A DNA stretch of 64,000 nt, taken from Escherichia phage KIT01. The position numbers and the translations under genes were made by a program. The notes below the pieces were generated by a model. It was not told the origin of the DNA. It ran no database searches and was given only the letters and a program-made list of their open reading frames with translations. Below are positions 1 to 21,287 of this stretch, piece by piece; position 1 is the first letter of the stretch; every line of letters starts with the position of its first letter. Location: the sequence record AP019521.1, one strand, 5' to 3'.

Positions 1-1496
1 AAAAACTAATAACCTTTGACGAATTACTTACAGGTATTAAAGGCGACGCTGGGGAAAATGGTGATATCGGTCCTCAAGGTCCTATTGGTTTACCTGGCCC
101 GCAAGGTATCCAAGGTGAAGTTGGGCCTAAAGGTCCTAAAGGCGATATCGGTCTTCAGGGTATAGCAGGGCCTGCTGGTCCTCAAGGTCCACAAGGTGAA
201 CGAGGAATACAGGGCTTAACAGGACCACAAGGCCAAATAGGTATTGCAGGGCCACAAGGCGTCAAAGGTGATACCGGTCCTCAAGGTCCTGTCGGCCCAC
301 AAGGTCCAGCAGGTGTACAAGGCGTACAAGGCGTCAAAGGTGATACAGGTCCAGCAGGCCCTGCAGGTTTAACTTGGAAAGGAACTTGGGACTCAGCTAC
401 GGAGTATTCAATAAATGAAGCCGTAGGATATGGAGGTTCTTTGTATTTTGCTACAGAAACCGTGCCTGTCGGCGAAATCCCATCTTTAGCCTCCGACTAT
501 TGGGAAGTTTTGGCTACCGAAGGTCCAGAAGGTCCTCAAGGACCACAAGGCATTCAGGGACCTATGGGTCCTCAGGGTATTCAAGGTCCTTTGGGTCCTG
601 TAGGCCCGCAAGGTATCCAAGGACCAAGAGGCTTACAAGGACCTGAAGGCGAAATAGGACCTCGTGGTTTGCAGGGGTTAAAAGGTGAAACAGGTGCTCA
701 AGGACCGCAGGGCATTCAAGGGCTTAAAGGCGAGCCAGGGGCCCAGGGACCTGATGGTATTGGTTTAACTGGGCCTCAAGGACCAATTGGCCTTACAGGT
801 CCAGCGGGCCCTCAGGGTATAAGAGGAGCCATAGGACCTAAAGGTGATACAGGTTTAACTGGTGCCCAAGGCGAGCAAGGTGCCCCAGGTGTTAAAGGTG
901 ATACCGGTCCTCAAGGATTACAAGGGGTTAAGGGAGATAAAGGGGATAAAGGAGATACTGGTGCCCAAGGATTACAAGGGGTTAAAGGAGATAAAGGAGA
1001 CAAAGGAGATACCGCGCCTCATAATAAAGTATACTATTTAGGACAAACCCCATGGTTCCACAACTCGTATGCTAAACATCAACTTCCAGGAACCAATGAT
1101 TGGCGGATTACTGTAACAGGTACAACCAACTTTGAATCCTATTCATCAGGTAACGTTAGAATAGGATTTTTTAATAATACTTCTGCATCCAGATCATGCA
1201 CGTTTACATTGATTTCTTATGATGCTAACGGCTCACAGAAAAATACAAAATACAATACTGTGCATAATGTTATGGTTCAAAGTTCTTATTATAAATTCTG
1301 GGGTGATAATGCCGATTCATTTATTATAGGCGGCACTTCTAATATATGTGAAGGGTTTTTTACTGATAATGCCACCAATAAAACCTATCATATAAAATTT
1401 ATAGGATTGGTCAAAGCCACAGCTACGGTACCAGGCAAATATGTTCTTGAAGTTGAAGAGATTATTTCTGGTGGCGAACCTGTAAAATATTATTAA
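1..1496 (+). CDS. Collagen-like (Gly-X-Y repeat) protein with non-collagenous C-terminal domain; 5' end lies outside window
   Basis: Frame is open from base 3 to stop at 1494-1496. Two blocks of Gly-X-Y triplets (about 42-370 and 520-1010) flank a short non-collagen linker; a C-terminal non-repetitive domain of about 160 aa follows. The ORF-track start at 441 is a TTG inside the open frame. Confidence 0.8.
912..1012 (+). repeat. Near-identical in-frame tandem duplication (two 47-nt copies, 54-nt period) inside the collagen-like gene
   Basis: Copies at 912-958 and 966-1012 encode the duplicated peptide [16 protein letters not shown]. Confidence 0.7.
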
Positions 1497-1506
1497 TGGA
1501 GGTTGA

Positions 1507-2370
1507 ATGGAACCGGTACAAGCTATATTAGAGCCTGGCGTAATAGATGTAGAATATGGTAATACTTATTCAGCAACAGTAACTCTAACTCCTATAGAAA
1601 ATATCCCAGATGGTTCCGTGATAAGATATGATTGGGTTGTTAATAACAAGTTTGTTGGTACGGGTGAAGCTACTCGTACCACCCAACCATCTCAGACCGG
1701 AAATTATGTGTTATCATGTAGAGTATTCATTACCCCGCCTAATGAAAATACTGTAATGATAACAACTAATAAATCATATGGGTATGTATATAAAAATTCT
1801 GATACAAGTCCAGTAGATGCAGAAATATTATACGATAATAAAATATACCAAATAGGGAGCAAAGTTAGATTATTAGCTACGGCTAATAACCCCGATACTA
1901 ACTATGTTAAAGGTATTATATGGAAGGATGCTGACGGGAATATAATAGGTATAGGGCGGGAATATATCCATACAATGCAATCTGAATATGATATAGTTCG
2001 TGCTAAAGTCACAATGGATTCGCCTACTAGAGATGAATTCAGTAAGAACTTTACCATACATTTATATGCTATAAATGTTCAAGAAGGAACTTGTATAAGA
2101 TACATTCATCCTTTAGACCATCGGGATGCTGGATTTATCTGGTGCGGATGGTGGGTTATGGATGAAGTTCAACGAGCAGTAAAACTTGGATTGGATTGGA
2201 AAAATCCTGAAGGAACTGAGTTAAATTATAAATGTGATTTAGAAACACTGTCATTATTGCTCAAAACATATCCTGAAGCTGAAGTTCAGGAATCAAGGCA
2301 CGGGCATATAATAACCAGACCGCAAATTGAGTCCGGTGAAATATATGAAAAGCCATATGAAGTAAAATAA
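1507..2370 (+). CDS. Hoc-like protein: Ig-like N-terminal region plus Hoc-type capsid-binding C-terminal domain
   Basis: 287 aa; RBS GGAGG 8 nt upstream. C-terminus HPLDHRDAGFIWCGWWVMDEVQ...DWK...YPEAEVQESRHGHII matches the Hoc C-terminal motif of the adjacent hoc gene. Confidence 0.75.
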   Translation: MEPVQAILEPGVIDVEYGNTYSATVTLTPIENIPDGSVIRYDWVVNNKFVGTGEATRTTQPSQTGNYVLSCRVFITPPNENTVMITTNKSYGYVYKNSDTSPVDAEILYDNKIYQIGSKVRLLATANNPDTNYVKGIIWKDADGNIIGIGREYIHTMQSEYDIVRAKVTMDSPTRDEFSKNFTIHLYAINVQEGTCIRYIHPLDHRDAGFIWCGWWVMDEVQRAVKLGLDWKNPEGTELNYKCDLETLSLLLKTYPEAEVQESRHGHIITRPQIESGEIYEKPYEVK

Positions 2371-2374
2371 AAAA

Positions 2375-2394
2375 GGGACCTTACGGTCCCTTTT
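2375..2394. terminator. Bidirectional rho-independent terminator between convergent Hoc-like and hoc genes
   Basis: Hairpin GGGACC-TTAC-GGTCCC flanked by an A-run upstream and T-run downstream. Confidence 0.65.
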
Positions 2395-2396
2395 AT

Positions 2397-3527
2397 TTAT
2401 GGATAGAAATAAATTATTCCTGCCTCCAATGAGGTTTTGTGTACGATATATCCATTACGAGATTCTTGTACATCAACCTCTGGATAGTCGGTAATCATTT
2501 TTTGAAGTGTATATCGGTGCAAATAATACGGGCTATCCGGGTCATCGGTTTTCCAGTCTTTGCCTTCAAGAGTCATTTTCTGGATTTCATCCATAACCCA
2601 CCATCCACACCAGATATAAGCTGAATTGCGAACTGGCAATGGATGTACATAAGGTAATTCACCATCTGGAACTGGTGCGACTTTAGCCGTGACTGTCACA
2701 TTACCGGTTTTGGTAACGGTCGCAGGGTTATAATCAGTCGCCGAAACCACAACAGAAACTTCAATAACCTGTGAACCTTCAGTGTTTGTATCGATTGCTA
2801 GAGTATCTGTGGTACCAGCAATACCAATGCCATCTTTCTTCCAAGAATAAGCAAAAGTGGCACCACTAGGCGCACCTGCTACGGTAGCTTTAAAAGAAGC
2901 CGGAGTTCCTTCAGGTACATTAATAGAGGCTGGCGTTAAATTAACAGAAACCCCAGACATTGTTTTCTTAACAAAAGAAACCGTTATGCCTTTAGCAGCA
3001 GTTGCTGAACCGTATTCCGGAGAGGTAACAGTAACTTCACAATTCAAGGTATAATTTGCTTCGGCTGCTTCAGTTAGTGTAATAGTTTTAGAGGTTTGGC
3101 CTGAAATTACGGTGGTATTTCGTTTCCAAACATAATTAATTGTTGCATCAGCAGGAGCACCGGTTACATTAGCCGTAACAACTTGGGATTGGCCGACTTC
3201 TTTAGAAACGGAAGTAGGGTCCAAAGCCAAAGAGATATCCATAGTTTTATTAGATACGGTAACTTCAAAGGTGTCTTCGGCTGTCTCAAGAGGGCCCGCA
3301 TCGCCAGGGTCAGAAGTTACTACTACTTTTATAACTTTCTTACCCGCAGGAGCAGCACCCGTATATCTCAAAACATTAGTGGTTTCTGGGTTAGCAGCTC
3401 CATCAACGGTCCATACATATGCAATGGTTCCCCCTGTTACAACTGGGTCGGTTGCGGTAGCAGTGTAATTAGCGCTTTCGCCTATTTTCATAGACGCTGC
3501 GCCGGCTATACTTACAGTAAAGGCCAT
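2397..3527 (-). CDS. hoc: Hoc, highly immunogenic outer capsid decoration protein
   Basis: 376 aa; near-collinear match to remembered T4 Hoc including C-terminal YVHPLP...AYIWCGWWVMDEIQKMT...YPEVDVQESRNGYI. Confidence 0.93.
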   Translation of the reverse strand: MAFTVSIAGAASMKIGESANYTATATDPVVTGGTIAYVWTVDGAANPETTNVLRYTGAAPAGKKVIKVVVTSDPGDAGPLETAEDTFEVTVSNKTMDISLALDPTSVSKEVGQSQVVTANVTGAPADATINYVWKRNTTVISGQTSKTITLTEAAEANYTLNCEVTVTSPEYGSATAAKGITVSFVKKTMSGVSVNLTPASINVPEGTPASFKATVAGAPSGATFAYSWKKDGIGIAGTTDTLAIDTNTEGSQVIEVSVVVSATDYNPATVTKTGNVTVTAKVAPVPDGELPYVHPLPVRNSAYIWCGWWVMDEIQKMTLEGKDWKTDDPDSPYYLHRYTLQKMITDYPEVDVQESRNGYIVHKTSLEAGIIYFYP

Positions 3528-3536
3528 AGTTTACCC

Positions 3537-4214
3537 TTATTTTAAAGTGACAAAAGATGAATTACGCGTTTCACGTACTAATACTGAGCCATTACGATTG
3601 ATGTAATAAATCAGACTGAATAATGTTTGGTGGGCTGAAGGATGTTGGAAATCTTTAGGACGTTCTTTCCAATCAGGGGTTTCAGAAATCCATTGATAAA
3701 TCCACCAAGGAACAGTACAGTAACCTGGGTTTTTACCAATAAGCAAAAGATTGGGACTAAAGTTTTCAGGGAGTTCAAATTTAGGTTTTTCTGATTCTTT
3801 AACCAAGGTTATAGCTTGATTGAATTTCTCTTCGACAAACGGGACATCCTCTTCAATAATCTCTACCTTAGGAAGTTCGGCTACCTCAACGACTTCAACA
3901 ACTGCCTCAGGAGCATCGAACAACAGGGTGGCTTCTTCTTTAGCCGGTTCAGCACCATCAACAAATTCGTTAGCACCATTGAGTTCGTCGGCAGCATCAA
4001 TCAAATCAGAAATAGACAAACCTTCGGTTTCCGGAAGTGGTTCGTCAGCCAAGGCTTTAAGACCTTCAGTGATATTGATAATCAAATTATCAACCGAACG
4101 GGTTTTCTTAAGTTTTAAACCGAACTGTTCACCGTATTCGATTAACTTAGCTTTAGCTTCTTTTTTATCTTCGAGTGCACGAAGCTCTTCAATATATTGA
4201 TGGTCCATAATCAT
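3537..4214 (-). CDS. inh: Inh-like protein (inhibitor of prohead protease), acidic
   Basis: 225 aa; position directly upstream of hoc on the same strand as in T4, and similar size; identity inferred from synteny. Confidence 0.55.
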   Translation of the reverse strand: MIMDHQYIEELRALEDKKEAKAKLIEYGEQFGLKLKKTRSVDNLIINITEGLKALADEPLPETEGLSISDLIDAADELNGANEFVDGAEPAKEEATLLFDAPEAVVEVVEVAELPKVEIIEEDVPFVEEKFNQAITLVKESEKPKFELPENFSPNLLLIGKNPGYCTVPWWIYQWISETPDWKERPKDFQHPSAHQTLFSLIYYINRNGSVLVRETRNSSFVTLK

Positions 4215-4228
4215 TCTCTTTTCTAGTG

Positions 4229-4236
4229 TATAAATA
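4229..4236 (+). promoter_or_regulatory. T4-type late promoter (TATAAATA) for uvsW
   Basis: Exact TATAAATA 29 nt upstream of the uvsW ATG. Confidence 0.6.
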
Positions 4237-4242
4237 TAACTA

Positions 4243-4250
4243 TATTTATA
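4243..4250 (-). promoter_or_regulatory. T4-type late promoter (TATAAATA on minus strand) for inh-hoc
   Basis: Reverse complement of 4243-4250 is TATAAATA, 29 nt upstream of the inh start; divergent with the uvsW promoter. Confidence 0.55.
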
Positions 4251-4264
4251 ACTGAGAATTACTT

Positions 4265-5761
4265 ATGCAAATTCAAGTACATTTTGATAATTTTAGTCAT
4301 GTTCGTGTTGAATGCGATGAATCTACATTCTACGAACTCAGAGACTATTTTAGCTTTGAAGCTGATGGATATAAATTCAACCCTAAATTTCGTTATGGGC
4401 AATGGGATGGACGTATTCGTCTTCTAGATTATAACCGTAAACTGCCTTATGGACTCGTCCCTCAAATTAAAAAGTTCGCTGAACAATTTGAATACTCTCT
4501 GTGGATTGACCCACGTATTCTTGAACAGGAAGATATTTCTCGTGAAGATTTTGACTCATGGGTGGCTTCTCAAGAAATTTATTCAGGGTCTACCAAGATT
4601 GAGCCGCATTGGTATCAGAATGAAGCCGTATACAACGGCCTGACAAAACGTCGCGCAATTCTGAATTTACCTACATCCGCAGGTAAATCATTAATCCAGG
4701 CACTCCTGAGTCGATATTACGTTGAGAACTATGAAGGTAAAATCCTCATCTTAGTTCCTACTACTGCACTTGTCGACCAGATGATTAATGACTTCATCGA
4801 TTATCGTTTGTTCCCTAAAGCCGCAATGCTTGGTATTCGTTCAGGTACCGCTCGTGATTCTGATGCAATGATTTACGTTTCGACTTATCAAACTGCTATT
4901 AAGCAACCTAAAGAATGGTTTGCTCAGTTTGGTATGTTTATGAACGACGAATGCCACTTGGCTACAGGTAAATCTATTTCTACCATCATCGAAGGCCTAA
5001 CCAACTGTATGTTTAAATTCGGTTTGTCTGGTTCTTTAAAAGATGGTAAAGCTAATTTAATGCAATATATGGGTTTGTTTGGTGATGTGTTTAAGCCAGT
5101 ATCCACCTCCCAGTTAATGGAAGAAGGACAGGTTACAGACCTTAAAATCAACAGTATTTTCCTTCGATACCCGGACGAATTCACCGTTAAAATGAAAGGT
5201 AAAGATTACCAATCAGAAATTAAAGTCATTACTAAGGCTACTCGTCGTAATAAATGGGTTGCTAATTTAGCTGTTAAACTCGCTAAGAAAGAAGAGAACG
5301 TATTCCTGATGTTTAAAAACATTGAACACGGTAAAACTCTTTTTGAAATGGTTAAAGAGCAACATAAAGAAGTTTATTACGTATCAGGTGAAGTTAATAC
5401 CGAAACGCGTAATGCTCTGAAAGTAATGGCGGAAAATGGTAAGGGTATTATTGTTGTGGCAAGTTATGGTGTGTTCTCTACTGGTATTTCCGTTAAGAAC
5501 CTTCACCACGTTGTATTTGCCCATCCAGTAAAATCTAAAATCATTGTACTCCAGACAATTGGTCGTGTACTCCGTAAACATGCCTCTAAATCAACAGCAC
5601 AGGTGTGGGATATCATCGACGACATGGGTGTTAAGCCTAAATCAGCTACGGCTAAAAAGAAATATGTTCATTTGAACTACGCCCTCAAACACGCTTTAGA
5701 ACGTATTCAACGTTATGCTGATGAGAAATTTAATTACGTAATGAAACAGGTGGATTTATGA
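4265..5761 (+). CDS. uvsW: UvsW DNA/RNA helicase
   Basis: 498 aa; strong match to T4 UvsW (HVRVECDESTFYELRDYFSFEADGY..., Walker A LNLPTSAGKS, DECH box). Confidence 0.95.
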   Translation: MQIQVHFDNFSHVRVECDESTFYELRDYFSFEADGYKFNPKFRYGQWDGRIRLLDYNRKLPYGLVPQIKKFAEQFEYSLWIDPRILEQEDISREDFDSWVASQEIYSGSTKIEPHWYQNEAVYNGLTKRRAILNLPTSAGKSLIQALLSRYYVENYEGKILILVPTTALVDQMINDFIDYRLFPKAAMLGIRSGTARDSDAMIYVSTYQTAIKQPKEWFAQFGMFMNDECHLATGKSISTIIEGLTNCMFKFGLSGSLKDGKANLMQYMGLFGDVFKPVSTSQLMEEGQVTDLKINSIFLRYPDEFTVKMKGKDYQSEIKVITKATRRNKWVANLAVKLAKKEENVFLMFKNIEHGKTLFEMVKEQHKEVYYVSGEVNTETRNALKVMAENGKGIIVVASYGVFSTGISVKNLHHVVFAHPVKSKIIVLQTIGRVLRKHASKSTAQVWDIIDDMGVKPKSATAKKKYVHLNYALKHALERIQRYADEKFNYVMKQVDL

Positions 5762-6767: not shown

Positions 6768-7383
6768 TGTATTTCCTCATAAAAGTAATAACCATACCAT
6801 CATACCACACTTCCGGATATTTGTGTTCTATTGCTATAGTTCTAAACCTTCTAGCTTTAGGCATTCCAGATTCTACCCATAATGAATACAGTTCATCCTC
6901 TTTATCCCAAGGTATATTTTTACTTCGTCTGTTTGGCCTTGGTACATCTTTAGCCCAATGGACCTGATGCTTGAATTTTTCCTTCATTGTTTTAGATTGC
7001 CGTTCTCTACCTATCTTAGTAGAAGGATTTTTCTTTCCTAACATAGGATGAACTTCCATTAATTGCCCGCCGACACCGCCTTTAGCTATATTAACACAAT
7101 TACTAAATTTAATTTTGGCTTCGCCAACTAAGAGTTCTTCAAACTCAGCATTCAATTCTAGGGTAGGTTGAACGGACAGAATATGTTTTACAAATCTAGT
7201 ATTTGGGTTTTTCTTGGCAGATTTTATAAAAATACCAGACCCTAAATAACTATTATTTAGAGAAGTGCTGGTGTGCTTACCAAAATAGACCCAGTAATTA
7301 TTATCTGTAAATATTTCTGTCATATAACAATAATGTATTTTATCTCTCATCGCATGTTTCCTGTGTAATAACCATAGGACCAT
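6757..7383 (-). CDS. GIY-YIG-like putative homing endonuclease (Seg-like), basic C-terminus
   Basis: N-terminal IHY...(14 aa)...VYFG resembles a GIY-YIG motif; Lys/Arg-rich C-terminal half; sits between uvsY and gene 25, which are adjacent in T4. Likely true start is the internal ATG at about 7350 (MRDKIHY...). Confidence 0.5.
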   Translation of the reverse strand: MVLWLLHRKHAMRDKIHYCYMTEIFTDNNYWVYFGKHTSTSLNNSYLGSGIFIKSAKKNPNTRFVKHILSVQPTLELNAEFEELLVGEAKIKFSNCVNIAKGGVGGQLMEVHPMLGKKNPSTKIGRERQSKTMKEKFKHQVHWAKDVPRPNRRSKNIPWDKEDELYSLWVESGMPKARRFRTIAIEHKYPEVWYDGMVITFMRKYNGN

Positions 7384-15023: not shown

Positions 15024-17147
15024 CTACATTTTGAATTTATTTGATAAAGAAGAGATATCCAAAGACGCGGCAAGGATTTCCATAGCTTCGTTGCTTTCAG
15101 AAACGGATTCATTAACCAAGAATTGACTGAATCCATCCATCAGGCGAACTTCACCAGTTTCCATCAAATGGTCACCATCGTAAACAGATTCGCTGAGCTC
15201 TGAAGGAGGCGTTACGGTAGCTTCCATAAGGTATTTGTGAGATACTCTATCATTCATGGCAAAAGCCGCTACTTTATCAACCTTCAACAATAATCCACGC
15301 GGAAGGATAATTTCTGCTTCTTCGGCATATTCTGTAAGGTCACCAGGAGCGATAACTTTAACTGCTTCAGCACCTCGAATAACCATACCAATTTCAGCAA
15401 TTCTATCCGCAGGACCTTCAGGTGCAATTGGATTACCGAACTCGTCTTCTTCCCATTCTACCTCTTCGTCATCGACTTCACCCACATCAGATGAACTACC
15501 ACTAGCCAATTTAAACAACTCATCAGCAGAGGATAAAGAACCTTCACCACCAACAAAAACGGCTTGGTTGTCGAGGGCCATATAATTTTTACCAAATTCA
15601 CCAAAGATGTTAGGCTTTAATGAGGCTGACACAAAGTTCTTAAAGTAAAATGTTTTGTTATCGATATTATGGCGCAGAATTTTGTATGGCAAATCCTGAC
15701 CACGATACAAAATAGTACCCTTAGGAAGTTTAATACCCTTAGTAAATGCTGAGTCTAAATCCTTAATCAATTTAATAGCCGTTGTATTGTTTTCGGATTC
15801 AGGTTTACCTAAAAGGAATAAGTTCATAGGAGCATATTCAGCCGCGCAATATTCAATAATAGCATTGCTTTCGTCTTTGGTTAGGTCCTTAGGTTTAATG
15901 AGCTCGCCTGAATAAGCATATGCATCACTAATAGAATCGTTAACCAGTTTATAAACGGCTTCCATAGCGAAAGCAATTCGAGATGCTTTCTCTGAAGGGG
16001 AACCCTTAAAACGGGTACTCAGGTTATTAACAATTTTCTTAATAATATCCAGACTATTGGTTGTATTGATTTGCGAAAGGCCACTTAAAAGTCTATCGAC
16101 TTCTGTATTAAAAAATGCCATATTATTAGAGTAAATTTCAAACCCTTGTTTATCTCTATTAGCATAATTTAGTTTAAATTTACTATCAGTCATTAAAGCG
16201 TGTGTGAGAGCAATAGTGTATCTAAAGTTGGCAAGGTCCTCGCTCTTAGATTTAAACTGAGAAGCCTGGCGCATTTTAGTAATAGCACCTTTTTTAAAGT
16301 TCTGACTAATCTGTTCAATACCTTCGTTCTCAGGGCCTTCAGCCGTGTGAACCGGTACAGAAGCTTCAAACTCGTTATAAACCTGCAATTCTTTAGGGGA
16401 CAAAGTTTCAGGCTCAGCAGTAGAATACTGCGCGGCCGCTGCCATACGACGCGAAATCTTAGTACGAGTAATAACAGCCTTATCAGTACGTTTCTCTTCA
16501 ACTTGTGCAATAGATGCCGCTACGGCTTCGACCTTACTTACGGCCTGGCCAGTTTTCTTAGAAACATACACTTCGCCAACTTTAGACTCAACTTTAGTAT
16601 AAAGATCGGCATTAATTTCAGGCATACCCTTGATATCTTCAATATTAGCACCACGACGTACTAAAAGAACGTAGGTATGTTTTCCGCTGAATTGGAACAT
16701 GTCGTCAACAACTTTAAACTTACCACCGGTACGAGCCATAGCCAAACGAGCTAATACGCGCTGGACGGTAGGACCTTTACCTTTCATTTTCTTAGTAGGG
16801 AAACGGAACAAAACCGCGTCCATTTTAAGTTTGTTTACTTGTTCGTATATGGTATCGAAAATGGTGTTCAGTGTACCGAGTGGATCGGTACCCAAACCAC
16901 CCTTGAGTTCTGCCGGAGCGCCTTTAGCAGATAAACTCATTAAGATAACATGGACGTACTTATCACCATTTTTAACCATCTTAATAGCGTCGCCTTCAGA
17001 CGCATAAGATACCATACGTGCTACTAAATTGTCATTACCAGGAGCATGTACCGCAAAAATCTGCGGTACGCCTGAGCCAGGTTTAAGATTTGTTACTGGG
17101 TAATTTTTTTTATCGCTTTTATCAAAAACTTCGTTTAAATTTTCCAT
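15024..17147 (-). CDS. alt: Alt-like mono-ADP-ribosyltransferase, paralog 1 (acidic insert, SAS variant of the STS motif)
   Basis: 707 aa; N-terminal about 230 aa and C-terminal region match T4 Alt; has YRGQ, FVSASLKP and EIILPRG. Confidence 0.85.
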   Translation of the reverse strand: MENLNEVFDKSDKKNYPVTNLKPGSGVPQIFAVHAPGNDNLVARMVSYASEGDAIKMVKNGDKYVHVILMSLSAKGAPAELKGGLGTDPLGTLNTIFDTIYEQVNKLKMDAVLFRFPTKKMKGKGPTVQRVLARLAMARTGGKFKVVDDMFQFSGKHTYVLLVRRGANIEDIKGMPEINADLYTKVESKVGEVYVSKKTGQAVSKVEAVAASIAQVEEKRTDKAVITRTKISRRMAAAAQYSTAEPETLSPKELQVYNEFEASVPVHTAEGPENEGIEQISQNFKKGAITKMRQASQFKSKSEDLANFRYTIALTHALMTDSKFKLNYANRDKQGFEIYSNNMAFFNTEVDRLLSGLSQINTTNSLDIIKKIVNNLSTRFKGSPSEKASRIAFAMEAVYKLVNDSISDAYAYSGELIKPKDLTKDESNAIIEYCAAEYAPMNLFLLGKPESENNTTAIKLIKDLDSAFTKGIKLPKGTILYRGQDLPYKILRHNIDNKTFYFKNFVSASLKPNIFGEFGKNYMALDNQAVFVGGEGSLSSADELFKLASGSSSDVGEVDDEEVEWEEDEFGNPIAPEGPADRIAEIGMVIRGAEAVKVIAPGDLTEYAEEAEIILPRGLLLKVDKVAAFAMNDRVSHKYLMEATVTPPSELSESVYDGDHLMETGEVRLMDGFSQFLVNESVSESNEAMEILAASLDISSLSNKFKM

Positions 17148-17150
17148 TAT

Positions 17151-19196
17151 TTACCCTTGGGTGAATTTTTCTGGGGTTTCGTCAAAATTAATACATGAAG
17201 CTAAAATAGGCATTATATCCACCTTGGTCGATTTGACGAATGAATCAAAAGACACAGGGTTGTCGGTCTCTGTTTCTACGCCTTGGTAAACAACCAATTC
17301 GCCGGTTTCCATCAATGCATCACCATCATAGATAACCGCATTTTCTGCTAGTTGGTCTGTGGTCTGGATGTCAGCTTCCAATAATTTGGTGTTGTAGTTT
17401 CCTTTATATGAGGCATCTGTAATTTTAGTAATCTTAACAGTAGTTCCACGTGGAAGAATAACCTCTTGTTCTGTTGGAGAACCTGACAATTCACCGGGCA
17501 CAATTACGTTAATAGAGTCTGCACCGGAAATTTTCCAACCGATGTTCATCATTGTATTTTCGGAACTCGTCAGCATACTTGGAAGAACAATTTCATTATC
17601 GCCTTGGAAAGATGTCCCAGCACGATAGTCCTGATGAACTGCGGCCATTGCGACGTTTGATACCCAGCCGCCAAAGATAATCGGCTTAAGGGACGTTGAT
17701 ACATAGTTCCTGAAATAAAACAATTTTGAGTGTTTGATTTTATCAAAAGTGTTAACATTTAAATATTGACCACGCCAAAGTGTAATATCAGGTGGCAATT
17801 TATGGCCAATTTCAAATGCCGCATCCATATCATTAATTACTTCAATTACACGATAACTATCAATAAATTCTGCATCCTCTTCATAATAATTACCCAACAA
17901 ATAATTATTAACATCGGTATAATATTGGCCGCAATAAGAAGAAATAGCCTCACGCTGCTCATACTCAAATCGATTATCGCTATAACTGGCTGTAAAATGC
18001 ATAACACTTTCTGACGCTTCATTAGCAAAGTCGCTAACAGCAGCACTTATACGTTGAGCATACTCTTGTTCCCAAAGCTCTGCCGCATATTCTGCCGCAT
18101 CCATATTAGGAGGAGCCTCATTCATTTTTCTTTCGATAAATGCAGCTTTGCGAAGGTTAAGAACCTCTGCACATGATTCGGCAAAAATCTGCATCTGCTT
18201 CATACTGCCGACAGGAGCACGTTTAAGTTCACGATGCATACGGTTAAAAATTGGGTCGGAGTCTTCGACTCGAATTTCTTCTTTCCAAACACCGTTTGCT
18301 CGCATAGCCATATCTGCCGCGCGCATACGCTCCATAGTATTCGTTTCAGAAGGTTGAATAAAAATTTCTAGTTCTTCATAATCATCGATAAGTTCTGCTG
18401 TTGCTGGGGCGCTAAATTTTGATGCCTCTGCATCAATCTCATCCCAACCTTCCGGAACTTCATCTCGAGGAGAATACTGGGCTGCGGCTACAGCACGCCT
18501 AGAAATCTTGGTAGTAGTAATAACAGCCTTATCCGTACGTTTTTCTTCGACTGCAGCTATACTAGCAGATAGTGCTTCTATTTTGGTTACTGATTGGCCT
18601 GTTTTCTTGGATACATAAACCTCACCAACTTTAGACTCAACCTTAGTGTAAAGGTCTGCATCAATTTCAGGCATACCTTTTATGTCCTCAATATTAGCTT
18701 GTTTACGAACCAGTAAAACGTATGTATGTTTGCCTGTAAATTGATACAAATCATCGACAACTTTAAACTTGCCGCCAGTACGAGCCATCGCCAAACGTGC
18801 CAATACACGTTGAACAGTAGGACCTTTACCTTTCATTTTCTTGGTAGGGAACCGGAAAAGAACTGCATCCATACGAAGAGCTTTAACTTGTTCGTATACA
18901 GTATCAAAAATGGTATTCAGCGTACCAAGTGGGTCAGAACCTAACCCGCCTTTCAACTCGGCTGGGGTACCCTTAGCAGACAAACTCATCAAAATAACAT
19001 GAACATATTTATCGCCCGGCTTAACCATTTTAATAGCGTCTCCTTGAGACGCATAAGATACCATACGAGCAACCAGGTTATCGTTACCTGGTGCTTGGAT
19101 AGAGAAAATCTGTGGAATACCGGAACCCGGTTTAAGATTTACTACTGGATAGTTTTTAGCGGAATCACTATCAAAAACCTCGTTTAAATTTTCCAT
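17151..19196 (-). CDS. alt: Alt-like mono-ADP-ribosyltransferase, paralog 2
   Basis: 681 aa; conserved N-terminus (MENLNEVFD...PQIFS...), WRGQ, YVSTSLKP and EVILPRG motifs; divergent central region. Confidence 0.85.
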   Translation of the reverse strand: MENLNEVFDSDSAKNYPVVNLKPGSGIPQIFSIQAPGNDNLVARMVSYASQGDAIKMVKPGDKYVHVILMSLSAKGTPAELKGGLGSDPLGTLNTIFDTVYEQVKALRMDAVLFRFPTKKMKGKGPTVQRVLARLAMARTGGKFKVVDDLYQFTGKHTYVLLVRKQANIEDIKGMPEIDADLYTKVESKVGEVYVSKKTGQSVTKIEALSASIAAVEEKRTDKAVITTTKISRRAVAAAQYSPRDEVPEGWDEIDAEASKFSAPATAELIDDYEELEIFIQPSETNTMERMRAADMAMRANGVWKEEIRVEDSDPIFNRMHRELKRAPVGSMKQMQIFAESCAEVLNLRKAAFIERKMNEAPPNMDAAEYAAELWEQEYAQRISAAVSDFANEASESVMHFTASYSDNRFEYEQREAISSYCGQYYTDVNNYLLGNYYEEDAEFIDSYRVIEVINDMDAAFEIGHKLPPDITLWRGQYLNVNTFDKIKHSKLFYFRNYVSTSLKPIIFGGWVSNVAMAAVHQDYRAGTSFQGDNEIVLPSMLTSSENTMMNIGWKISGADSINVIVPGELSGSPTEQEVILPRGTTVKITKITDASYKGNYNTKLLEADIQTTDQLAENAVIYDGDALMETGELVVYQGVETETDNPVSFDSFVKSTKVDIMPILASCINFDETPEKFTQG

Positions 19197-19199
19197 TAT

Positions 19200-21287
19200 T
19201 TACCCTTGGATGAATTTTTCTGGGATGTCATAGAGGTCTATGCATGAAGCCAAAAGAGACAGTACATCAAACCGTGTAGATTTAACAAATGAATCAAAAG
19301 ATACGGGGCTTTCGGAAGTATCGAAATCATCTTGATATACGACCAACTCACCGGTTTCCATTAGTACGTCACCATCATATACCACAGATTCTTGAAGCTC
19401 ATCTGATGTCATAACTTCAGCTTGAATAAATTTATTGTTAGACCCAGCCCCAGAACCAGTATTGGCTGATGCATCCACGATTTTATCTATTTTTACAAGT
19501 AGCCCGCGTGGTAAAATTATTTCCTTTTCGTTGGCATGCATGCTTAATTGGCCAGGATAAATCACGTTAACCTTATGAGCGCCACTAATAGCCCAGCCAA
19601 CATCAACCCGGATTTGATCCGGTGCATACATATGTGTACGCACTTGACTATCAGAGATGGTAACGCCTTCGTCATTATTATCAACGTTTAATTCTTTTCG
19701 AACATCATCGGAAGCAAGACCAATAGCCGCATTCTCTTTAAAGCCACCAAAAATGATTGGAGCCAATGAGGTTGAAACATAGTTTCTAAAATAGAATACC
19801 TTATTTTTAACTAATGCTTCGTAGATAGGCGCGCGCAAAGATTGGGCTCTATAAACCATTATTCCTTCAGGTAAACGGTCACCATTTTTAAAGGCCGAAT
19901 CCATTCCATCAATAGCACGTTTAACTTCGCTTTCGTCCAAAACTTCATAAAAGCCTGGTTTATAACGGCCAAGAAGGACATTGTTGATATCAACATAAGC
20001 TGAAGAGGCGTATTCTCTGATAGCTCGTTTTTCTGCAAGTGTATATTGTTTAGGGTCTCGAGATGTTGTTATATTAAGAATTTCTCTAGTTGATTCTATA
20101 GCGTATGTATACATTATCTTAGACAAGAATGAAGACTTACGTTGTTTCCATACTCTTTCACTGTTTTCATTCAATATCTCTTTTTCCAAATGGAAATTGT
20201 CTTTTCTATAATCTTCAAACCAATCACTTTTAATAGATTCTGCGATTTCATTAGCAGCTTCAACAAAGGCAGCTAAAGCTTTAACTGACGTGGTTTTTTC
20301 ATTTTTAATTTTTTTGACAAATTTTTCTAAAGAAGAGTTAATTTTATCACCGTAAGAAACTTCATCCGCAAATTTAAATGAATCATCCATAGTATTATAA
20401 ATTTTAAAATCAATAGCCGTAGCCAGCTTATCCTTAGCTGTTTCGGATGATAATGATAATTCAACTTCGGCTGCTTGTGGAATTAATTCCGCCGTAGCAG
20501 GTGCACTGAACTCATTGGCAGTTTGTTCATATTTCTGAAACAATTCACCTTCATTACGGTCTGCTTCTAATGACTGACTTGCTGCAATAGCACGACGGGA
20601 AATCTTAGTTTTGGTTATAACCATTTTATCAGTGCGACGTTCTTCAACTTTAGCAATACTGCCGGCAATAGCAGTTTCTTTAGTAACCTGCATGCCTTCT
20701 TTTTTAGAAATATAAACTTCACCGACATCAGAATCTACCTTAGTATATAATTCAGCATTAATTTCTGGTATACCCTTAATATCTTCAATGTTAGCTTGTT
20801 TACGAACTACCAGAATATAAGTATGTTTGCCGGTGAATTCATACATGGCTGGAACTACTTTAAATCGTCCACCAGTTTTCTGTGCTACTAAACGTTGAAT
20901 AATACGTTGAACGATAGGACCTTGTCCTTTCATTTTCTTGGTAGGGAACCGGAACATCACGGCATCCATACGAAGAGCTTTAACTTGTTCGTAGACAACA
21001 CTAAAGATAGTATTAATTGCATCGATAGGAGTAGGGCCAAGGCCACCCTTAAGTTCTGCTGGAGTACCTTTAGCTGATAAACTCATCAGAATAACGTGGG
21101 CATATTTATCACCTAATTTAACTTGTTTGATCGCGTCTCCTTGAGACGCATAAGATACCATACGAGCAACTAATTGGGACTCTGCATCGCCAATCTTCCA
21201 AATCTGGGGTACTTTAAGTTTAGGGTTCAAGTTTACTGTAGGCAGTGTGCCTTCGGACTCAAACACTTCATTTAATTGTTCGGTCAT
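19200..21287 (-). CDS. alt: Alt-like mono-ADP-ribosyltransferase, paralog 3 (closest to T4 Alt)
   Basis: 695 aa; YRAQSL, RNYVSTSLAP, NEKEIILPRGLLVKIDKI and C-terminal LMETGELV all match T4 Alt. Confidence 0.88.
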   Translation of the reverse strand: MTEQLNEVFESEGTLPTVNLNPKLKVPQIWKIGDAESQLVARMVSYASQGDAIKQVKLGDKYAHVILMSLSAKGTPAELKGGLGPTPIDAINTIFSVVYEQVKALRMDAVMFRFPTKKMKGQGPIVQRIIQRLVAQKTGGRFKVVPAMYEFTGKHTYILVVRKQANIEDIKGIPEINAELYTKVDSDVGEVYISKKEGMQVTKETAIAGSIAKVEERRTDKMVITKTKISRRAIAASQSLEADRNEGELFQKYEQTANEFSAPATAELIPQAAEVELSLSSETAKDKLATAIDFKIYNTMDDSFKFADEVSYGDKINSSLEKFVKKIKNEKTTSVKALAAFVEAANEIAESIKSDWFEDYRKDNFHLEKEILNENSERVWKQRKSSFLSKIMYTYAIESTREILNITTSRDPKQYTLAEKRAIREYASSAYVDINNVLLGRYKPGFYEVLDESEVKRAIDGMDSAFKNGDRLPEGIMVYRAQSLRAPIYEALVKNKVFYFRNYVSTSLAPIIFGGFKENAAIGLASDDVRKELNVDNNDEGVTISDSQVRTHMYAPDQIRVDVGWAISGAHKVNVIYPGQLSMHANEKEIILPRGLLVKIDKIVDASANTGSGAGSNNKFIQAEVMTSDELQESVVYDGDVLMETGELVVYQDDFDTSESPVSFDSFVKSTRFDVLSLLASCIDLYDIPEKFIQG

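Follow-up and report, generated by a model that had tools for sequence, protein, structure and literature searches.

The 64,000-nucleotide (nt) stretch of Escherichia phage KIT01 analysed here (sequence record AP019521.1; hereafter, the window) opens inside a gene for a long collagen-like fibre, which is followed almost immediately by a gene for a short paralogue of the capsid protein Hoc that we call Hoc2. Relatives of this fibre are deposited as tail fibres; on comparative grounds we lean, somewhat beyond an even chance, towards a different assignment, in which it would be a capsid-anchored adhesin fibre carried on the phage head and not on the tail. A preliminary description of this DNA had proposed a trimeric capsid-surface fibre or decoration protein from the placement of the gene. 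Four comparative lines now point the same way: the operon with Hoc2, an N-terminal anchor resembling that of the phiTE protein pTE217, T1-like relatives in which DUF1737 domains go together with a place in the head module, and the lack of tail-attachment domains. The location on the virion itself is still something that we infer.

The fibre gene occupies frame 3 of the plus strand, which is open from nt 3 to a TAA stop codon at 1494-1496 (497 codons), and its 5' end is cut by the window edge, as had been described. There is no start codon for it inside the window; the start lies upstream. Alignment to the homologue gp244 of phage VR26 indicates that about 23 N-terminal residues are absent, since amino acids (aa) 1-10 of the window protein are identical to residues 24-33 of gp244, whose anchor is of the class termed type A below. 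An exact 40-nt pattern aimed at the absent N-terminus matched nothing in viral contigs, and looking up the Hoc2 protein by exact identity returned no record. Behind the anchor stand 92 Gly-X-Y triplets in three runs (Pfam Collagen PF01391, E 2.7e-43, 146 bits against a cut-off of 27.2). The collagen triple helix rises by 0.286 nm per residue, so that the 276 triplet residues would span about 79 nm as what is presumably a trimeric triple helix. A non-collagen module splits the stalk into two blocks, and a C-terminal domain of about 160 aa without collagen character (aa 338-497) ends the protein. This anatomy had been read correctly from the letters with a sole correction: two blocks there are, but the second, thought to be unbroken, is interrupted by a two-residue Gly-Ile step.

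Hoc2 is a Hoc protein without the first immunoglobulin-like (Ig) domain. It aligns with residues 121-376 of T4 Hoc (phmmer E 2.5e-24), conserves the motifs IWCGWWVMDE...VQESRNG, matches PHROG 1149 (E 1e-54) and also PHROG 21694, and is 93% identical to Hoc2 of VR25/VR26. Both the presence of a Hoc-family gene 10 nt behind the fibre gene and the orientation of the fibre gene on the strand opposite to canonical hoc hold as first described (Table 1). Fibre gene and Hoc2 are co-transcribed, because the 10-nt spacer leaves no room for a promoter. The further claim that the fibre gene sits where T4 has rnlB/24.2/24.3 is not visible in the window, which begins inside the gene; in relatives (VR26, VR7, JS10, Kosakonia 305, CGG4-1 and dhaeg), however, the pair does lie between 24.3 and hoc.

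The same two genes recur together far beyond KIT01. Searches with collagen, Hoc2 or anchor sequences reached 12 Straboviridae loci in all, namely the window and 11 public genomes: VR26 and VR7 (both Gaprivervirus), dhaeg (Dhakavirus), JS10, Kosakonia 305, CGG4-1, Erwinia Cronus, Pseudomonas PspYZU05, Aeromonas GomatiRiver_11, Aeromonas 65 and IME08. A short Hoc-like gene accompanies the anchor-bearing fibre gene at all 12, lying downstream on the same strand in 11 and belonging to a rearranged pair in IME08. The gap between the two genes is -4 to +29 nt in nine loci (-4 in GomatiRiver_11 and Aeromonas 65, 1 in Erwinia Cronus, 9 in VR26, CGG4-1 and dhaeg, 10 in the window, 11 in JS10 and 29 in Kosakonia 305) and 116-127 nt in PspYZU05 (116) and VR7 (127). 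The pair has thus been kept across at least eight Straboviridae lineages with hosts in Escherichia, Salmonella, Kosakonia, Erwinia, Pseudomonas and Aeromonas. Because this conservation falls in one of the most plastic regions of T4-type genomes, it argues for a link between fibre and Hoc2 that is functional and not just positional. JS98 and UGJNEcP3 have neither the fibre gene nor Hoc2, and carry a single hoc.

Individual loci vary in ways worth recording. In Aeromonas 65 the pair is intact though tk and another gene separate it from hoc-1, and in Erwinia Cronus it lies elsewhere, directly after the gp24 genes, and includes a 166-aa Hoc2 with a single Ig domain and the capsid-binding domain (L015 5016-5516). 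PspYZU05 has a reduced pair, a 49-aa anchor-only ORF (open reading frame) and a 132-aa Hoc-like protein (L016 4001-4665). Kosakonia 305 has no canonical hoc between Hoc2 and inh, leaving Hoc2 as the only Hoc-like gene at the locus (L004 4989-6919). In IME08 the collagen gene sits behind gp24b and no intact anchor precedes its annotated start, the type-B anchor-like frame upstream being closed by a stop (L001 4236-4436); ahead of Hoc2, 24 codons of a type-B anchor ORF (MPDNPLYGHDGRG...) survive (L001 7020-7136). The copy may be decaying, or the arrangement may reflect an error of sequencing or annotation.

The N-terminal anchors fall into two types, a short type A (..G.KEGVFYGYSLYDL..., with the element ..GEKEGVFYGYSLYDLNKE) and a longer type B (..FGHDGRG.F.G..L......F..IL.....LGIT.EML.P), between which hhalign finds a relationship (E 2e-5). 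Clade I of Hoc2 accompanies type A (window, VR26, VR7 and Kosakonia 305) and clade II accompanies type B (JS10, IME08, CGG4-1 and GomatiRiver_11), a four-to-four match that holds across phage taxonomy, while the heads shuffle between the two: head type 1 is common to VR26 (type A) and JS10 (type B), and the window (A) and IME08 (B) have other heads. The match of anchor type and Hoc2 clade fits an interaction between the two proteins. Among clade-II Hoc2 proteins, mean pairwise identity is 0.42-0.54 in the distal Ig domain against 0.33-0.37 in the middle one.

Type-A anchors have homologues outside the Straboviridae, in pTE217 of phage phiTE. A cryo-electron microscopy (cryo-EM) study of phiTE putatively equated pTE217, the fifth most abundant virion protein by mass spectrometry (MS), with the hexamer-centred 'Pagoda' decoration protein (PMC11972413). 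Profile-profile comparison of type-A anchors with the pTE217 N-terminus by hhalign gave a probability of 96-97% and an E-value of 3e-10. Restricted to the 34 residues before the collagen, it gave 96% and 3.4e-9, with a score of 37 against 7.9 +/- 1.8 (maximum 14.4) in 60 column shuffles; leaving out the bridging sequence gave E 1e-6, and pairwise comparisons yielded z-scores of 5-9 against shuffles. A single hidden Markov model of type-A and type-B anchors did not match pTE217 significantly (E 0.94), the homology emerging in profile-profile comparison only, and it reaches the window protein only through the identity of 10 anchor residues to VR26. The position of phiTE_217 in its genome corresponds to that of the collagen genes of phage A5-4 (A54_226) and of contig L007. 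A54_226 lies between the major capsid protein and adaptor genes, and P0001, encoded on a Vequintavirinae-like contig, belongs to a run of consecutive genes with anchors that comes directly before a phiTE-type head-tail adaptor. CB7_10, a collagen-domain protein of the Vequintavirinae phage CB7, has been found in virions by MS (PMC7344957).

Some homologues of pTE217 (P0010-P0012, for example from Salmonella phage SSBI34; L007 999-1238) bear Gly-X-Y repeats straight after the anchor. These are mini-collagens of 79-115 aa, made up of the anchor, about 10-20 triplets and a small domain; they recall SPP1 gp12 and may help to model unassigned Pagoda density. Vequintavirinae also encode a protein of 1,100-1,263 aa between the major capsid and adaptor genes (A54_224, L009 2235-6026; phiTE_215, L012 4386-7685), which in A5-4 (A54_224) combines collagen repeats with a Fibritin_C (foldon) domain. 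The conserved upstream neighbour phiTE_216 was considered as an analogue of Hoc2 and rejected, having no similarity to it.

A third kind of anchor is found in T1-like phages. The proteins e4/1c gp11 (L010 4650-6167), Sd1 gp45 (L011 4533-6008) and the metagenomic P0002 (L008 2950-4008), all annotated as tail fibres, have a body of collagen, carbohydrate-binding module (CBM), collagen and head in common with the T4-like fibres, and their genes lie between a cement/decoration gene and the major capsid gene. Their N-termini consist of two DUF1737 domains, at or above the Pfam cut-off; none was found in the window protein or its T4-like homologues. Cryo-EM shows DUF1737 binding phi24B gp84, as a hexamer, to the centre of the capsid hexon (bioRxiv 10.64898/2026.04.10.717836). 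Two DUF1737 domains in each of three chains would make six, as many as in the phi24B hexameric ring, which would fit a trimeric fibre to a six-fold site.

Tail-attachment domains, by contrast, are missing. Three domains define lambdoid side tail fibres, namely PfN for tail attachment, the Pf2 repeat and PfC (PMC3368898), and none of PfN (PF08400), Phage_fiber_2/Pf2 (PF03406) and PfC (PF06820) was detected at E <= 0.1 in the full-length homologues of VR26, JS10, Kosakonia 305 and CGG4-1 or in P0001; the window protein, truncated at its N-terminus, shows none of them either. The fibre gene also lies far from the tail-fibre genes 34-37 of the window.

Two parts of the fibre could make contact with ligands. 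The segment between the collagen blocks had been passed over as a short linker, but it appears to be more than a spacer: by profile match it is a CBM5/12-like module of 49 aa, kept in all relatives. A profile of 12 homologous modules matched the whole chitin-binding domain of Bacillus chitinase A1 (1ED7) at E 7.4e-5, followed by many further CBM5/12 domains of chitinases and deacetylases. Single modules score below the Pfam CBM_5_12 cut-off of 26.2 bits, at 14.8 bits (E 0.029) for the window and 23.2 bits (E 7e-5) for JS10.

The second is the head, which is nearly an orphan in sequence. An exhaustive HMMER search of 1.84 billion representative proteins returned two true relatives, P0001 and P0002, and four further matches that proved to be repeat proteins and were discarded as spurious. 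Nothing was found by tblastn against 50,697 phage records at E <= 10, by a word-indexed protein search or by degenerate-pattern scans of viral and metagenome contigs, and the head alone matched no Pfam, PHROG or NCBIfam model and, by sequence profile, no Protein Data Bank (PDB) chain. AlphaFold2 (AF2), run on three sequences, predicts a domain of about 10 beta strands (pLDDT 77, pTM 0.76). Foldseek comparison of this model with the PDB found nothing at E <= 0.001 and no TM-score above 0.40, the best value being reached by MATH/TRAF, MD-1 and transglutaminase barrels, with no C1q, TNF or BclA chain among the best 50 matches. The suggestion that the globular end resembles that of BclA or C1q is therefore not borne out by profile or structure searches with the residues behind the last triplet. 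Against predicted viral structures (BFVD), by contrast, the model matched the C-termini of other phage collagen-like proteins with probability 1.0 and TM-scores of 0.5-0.66, among them JS10 gp176 and a 354-aa 'tail fiber protein' of Aeromonas phage 65.2 that equals the phage 65 fibre-gene product in length. Judging by these predicted folds, the heads of phage collagen fibres form one fold family whose sequences have strongly diverged. At the sequence level the window head has a relative in the T1-like phage Sd1 (hhalign E 3e-5) and is unrelated to the heads of VR26, JS10, VR7 and CGG4-1; a comparison of head type 2 with head type 1 by hhalign gave no relationship (probability 0.7%), yet Foldseek links the window head to the JS10 head.

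How KIT01 came by its head can be read from the nucleotide sequence. By blastn, window nt 1-925 are 72% identical to the VR26 collagen gene (75% at the protein level, over aa 1-303 against gp244) and nt 1498-2652 are 84.5% identical to VR26, whereas nt 926-1497 between them have no nucleotide similarity to it. Because similarity to VR26 flanks this segment and is absent within, the head was evidently acquired by a recombinational swap whose left breakpoint falls within the collagen repeats and whose right one coincides with the stop codon. Near the left breakpoint (about nt 925) lies a 54-nt tandem repeat at 893-1021. Farther along, nt 2363-4300 (hoc-inh) are 94% identical to IME08, and from 2363 onward the window is Dhakavirus, with about 95% identity to UGJNEcP3 across the next 20 kb; by these similarities the fibre-Hoc2 pair is of Gaprivervirus type on a Dhakavirus backbone. 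GC content at third codon positions (GC3) is alike in stalk, head and Hoc2, at about 0.25. Heads are exchanged among unrelated coliphages elsewhere too: head type 1 is 53-58% identical between VR26 (T4-like), A5-4 (rV5-like) and e4/1c (T1-like). Such exchange suggests that the ligand belongs to a shared host or habitat. Being nearly an orphan, the head of the window is a candidate for a new binding specificity.

Taken as a capsid-anchored adhesin, the fibre might work as follows. The N-terminal anchor of about 35 aa would fix a fibre trimer to the capsid surface at gp23 hexamers, either by binding directly, as proposed for its Pagoda homologue in phiTE, or through the capsid-binding domain of Hoc2. 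Triple-helical segments of about 33 and 46 nm would carry a CBM5/12-type knob along the stalk and end in a trimeric beta-sandwich head, and both knob and head could recognise carbohydrate or other ligands on surfaces of the host or of its habitat. Reversible multivalent adhesion of this kind would gather virions near susceptible cells, as has been proposed for Hoc, T5 pb10, phi29 gp8.5 and SPP1 gp12. The head would then be a cassette that T4-like, rV5-like and T1-like phages exchange by recombining within the collagen repeats. More tentatively, and with rather less than even confidence, we propose that Straboviridae carry a conserved but mobile two-gene module in which Hoc2 serves as a dedicated capsid adaptor or co-receptor site for a long collagen adhesin (about 80 nm in the window), and that the same stalk-head cassettes are mounted on the capsids of three unrelated phage groups by way of type-A or type-B anchors with Hoc2 (T4-like), Pagoda-type anchors (rV5-like) and tandem DUF1737 (T1-like).

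Several observations weigh against a place on the capsid. Our literature search found no proteomic, electron-microscopic or genetic evidence that puts any T4-like member there, and the identity of pTE217 with Pagoda is itself putative, resting on MS abundance for a protein without a model (PMC11972413). Only 10 anchor residues fall within the window. Type-A-like anchors occur in rV5-like phages without Hoc, which argues against Hoc2 as an obligatory adaptor, and the match of anchor type and Hoc2 clade can be explained by linkage alone, since both flanks survive when a double crossover replaces the head. Hoc already sits at hexamer centres and would compete for the site, and a trimer would have to be matched to a monomeric Hoc2 or a six-fold hexamer. 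Late expression is not evident from promoters: the exact T4 late promoter TATAAATA was absent from the 200 nt upstream in four relatives, with one-mismatch sites in VR26 and Kosakonia 305 only, and sigma-70-like sites in the window occur at chance level. Finally, a collagen shaft with an inserted module is also typical of true lateral tail fibres such as EPclB and phi24B gp61.

That last point leads to the assignment made by RefSeq and PHROG, an accessory lateral tail fibre on the baseplate or tail, serving as an additional receptor-binding protein. All homologues have tail fiber in their RefSeq product names, PHROG 5073 'tail fiber protein' matches at E 2e-106 together with many other 'tail' PHROGs, a variable distal head is typical of receptor-binding proteins, and the layout of collagen, inserted module, collagen and head is that of the EPclB side tail fibres and phi24B gp61. 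The PHROG matches, however, pass through the Gly-X-Y repeats, the head contributing none, and the PfN, Phage_fiber_2 and PfC domains are lacking; the gene is never in a tail-fibre cluster but always beside a Hoc paralogue, its T1-like and rV5-like relatives lie inside the head module, and its N-terminal anchors are related to those of capsid decoration. We consider a tail fibre unlikely on this evidence, though the most probable of the alternatives. A fibre on the head might instead stand at the vertices, the trimer docking by its short N-terminal tail on pentameric gp24. The adenovirus fibre docks on the penton base and PRD1 P5 on P31, each by a short N-terminal anchor followed by a trimeric shaft, a design that the KIT01 fibre would share; its gene lies just downstream of the gp24 genes (directly after them in Erwinia Cronus), and many carriers have two gp24 paralogues. 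Duplication of gp24 was nonetheless rejected as a correlate of the cassette on two counter-examples, JS98 with two gp24 genes and no fibre and GomatiRiver_11 with one gp24 and a fibre. The homologous anchor protein of phiTE is far too abundant for 11 vertices and is assigned to hexamers, and strict pairing with Hoc2, a hexamer binder, would go unexplained, all of which makes a vertex fibre improbable.

A neck or collar whisker, fibritin-like in function, seems to us a shade less probable again. The homologous genes of Vequintavirinae do lie immediately upstream of the head-tail adaptor gene, next to an A54_224 that joins collagen repeats to Fibritin_C, but the phiTE paper reports neither collar nor whiskers (the word 'whisker' is absent from its text), the T4-like genes are not near neck genes, and pTE217 is too abundant for a neck component. 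We give least credence of all to a non-virion product, such as a protein that the infected cell secretes or displays on its surface, or to a decaying gene. The missing late promoters and the degenerate versions in PspYZU05 (the 49-aa anchor-only ORF) and IME08 (rearranged) would suit it, but the ORF runs undamaged through 497 codons and its Gly periodicity is perfect, GC3 does not set the gene apart from its neighbours, the pair is conserved in at least eight Straboviridae lineages, and the related proteins CB7_10 and pTE217 have been found in virions.

If the protein is a tail fibre after all, it is an ordinary extra receptor-binding protein. If it is on the capsid, it would add to Hoc and Soc a third class of T4-like outer-capsid protein: a trimeric adhesin, long and flexible, whose tip can be exchanged and which comes with a Hoc paralogue of its own. 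'Tail fiber' would then be the wrong annotation for the whole family, a systematic error to be corrected in the three phage groups examined; 'second hoc' genes would gain a function; and phage adhesion would have a widespread, overlooked layer in head fibres whose lectin-like tips can be exchanged. Such a fibre would also be a natural scaffold displaying ligands about 80 nm from the capsid, and would matter for the way in which therapeutic coliphages adhere to mucus or to cell surfaces ahead of tail-mediated adsorption.

Table 1. Coordinates of the fibre gene, Hoc2 and adjoining features in the window
Feature	Position (nt)	Strand	Basis
End of N-terminal anchor, putatively type A, last 10 residues	3..32	+	Identity to VR26 gp244 residues 24-33
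Collagen block 1, 38 Gly-X-Y triplets, aa 11-124, about 33 nm	33..374	+	
Inter-collagen module, CBM5/12-like (chitin-binding type), 49 aa, aa 125-173	375..521	+	Profile match to 1ED7
Collagen block 2, 27 + 27 triplets, aa 174-254 and 257-337, about 46 nm	522..1013	+	
Gly-Ile two-residue break in collagen block 2, aa 255-256 (one-residue deletion)	765-770	+	
Tandem repeat of 54 nt, 2.4 copies, 84% match	893-1021	+	Stalk-head junction
C-terminal head domain, 160 aa, aa 338-497, predicted all-beta, with stop codon	1014..1496	+	AF2, homologue searches
Spacer of 10 nt (TGGAGGTTGA) with Shine-Dalgarno GGAGG	1497..1506	+	
Hoc2, 287-aa Hoc paralogue, two Ig-like domains and Hoc capsid-binding domain	1507..2370	+	phmmer, PHROG 1149
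Hairpin terminator between convergent Hoc2 and hoc, flanked by A-runs and T-runs	2371..2394		
Canonical hoc, 376 aa, convergent with the pair	2397..3527	-	

Two further observations concern the surroundings of the cassette. A conserved motif, TTTTTAACTTGTAAACAGGAG, lies just upstream of the first cassette ORF in VR26, JS10 and IME08 (L002 5850-5931, L006 about 5000-5026 and L001 about 7030-7050), where it may be a promoter or translation signal; in VR26 a mini-ORF of 20 codons (MPDILERKDLLYNRHYLNKY) stands between it and the fibre gene. Farther along the window, at 15024-21287 on the minus strand, there are three tandem ORFs (707, 681 and 695 aa) whose counterparts in UGJNEcP3, the closest relative, are three Alt-like ADP-ribosyltransferase genes; JS98, JS10 and IME08 have two such genes annotated.

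The closest known systems are the T4-like homologues already deposited: VR26 gp244, VR7 ORF196w, JS10 gp176, IME08 gp169, dhaeg_81, Kosakonia 305 gp246, CGG4-1 gp212, Cronus gp244 and Aeromonas 65 ST65p147. They have the organization seen in the window, with anchor, collagen, CBM5/12-like module, collagen and head, a Hoc-like partner and the same locus. Their database labels include 'tail fiber-like protein' (JS10), 'collagen triple helix repeat' (VR7 ORF196w) and 'similar to collagen-like proteins' (Aeromonas 65, beside 'hoc-2, second copy of the hoc gene'). We found no experimental basis for the 'tail fiber' label and no functional study of the VR7, JS10 or Kosakonia collagen genes in the literature; the family is already deposited but uncharacterised, and its tail-fibre annotation is probably mistaken. 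Three things are new here: a Hoc paralogue strictly paired with the fibre, capsid-type anchors of three interchangeable kinds in different phage families, and the nearly orphan head.

Collagen stalks that end in globular domains are known from several other settings. EPclA/B, the Stf-related proteins and phi24B gp61 are trimeric and, like the window fibre, have collagen shafts with a globular C-terminus, the EPclB shaft including a small globular repeat; unlike it, they are encoded in tail modules and are defined by PfN, Pf2 and PfC. BclA and the C1q-TNF proteins likewise end a collagen stalk in an all-beta, presumably trimeric globular head, but the window head reaches a TM-score of 0.40 at best in the PDB and matches no PDB chain in sequence. 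On capsids there is a precedent in SPP1 gp12, a collagen-like trimer whose binding to the centres of hexamers is reversible and which is proposed to mediate adhesion (PMC7602432); it resembles the proposed fibre in these respects, and differs in being short and in having neither a CBM module nor a globular head. pTE217 and its homologues have in common with type-A fibres the homologous anchor, a gene in the head module and, in some, Gly-X-Y repeats after the anchor, but they are 98-200 aa long, lack the CBM module, end in other C-terminal domains and come from phages without Hoc. The DUF1737-collagen proteins of T1-like Drexlerviridae have the same blocks, CBM and head families as the T4-like fibres, P0002 and Sd1 even carrying relatives of the window head, and they too are encoded in the head module; they differ in bearing two DUF1737 domains in place of a type-A or type-B anchor and in having no Hoc partner, while phi24B gp84, the DUF1737 protein placed on the hexon, itself carries an esterase in place of a fibre.

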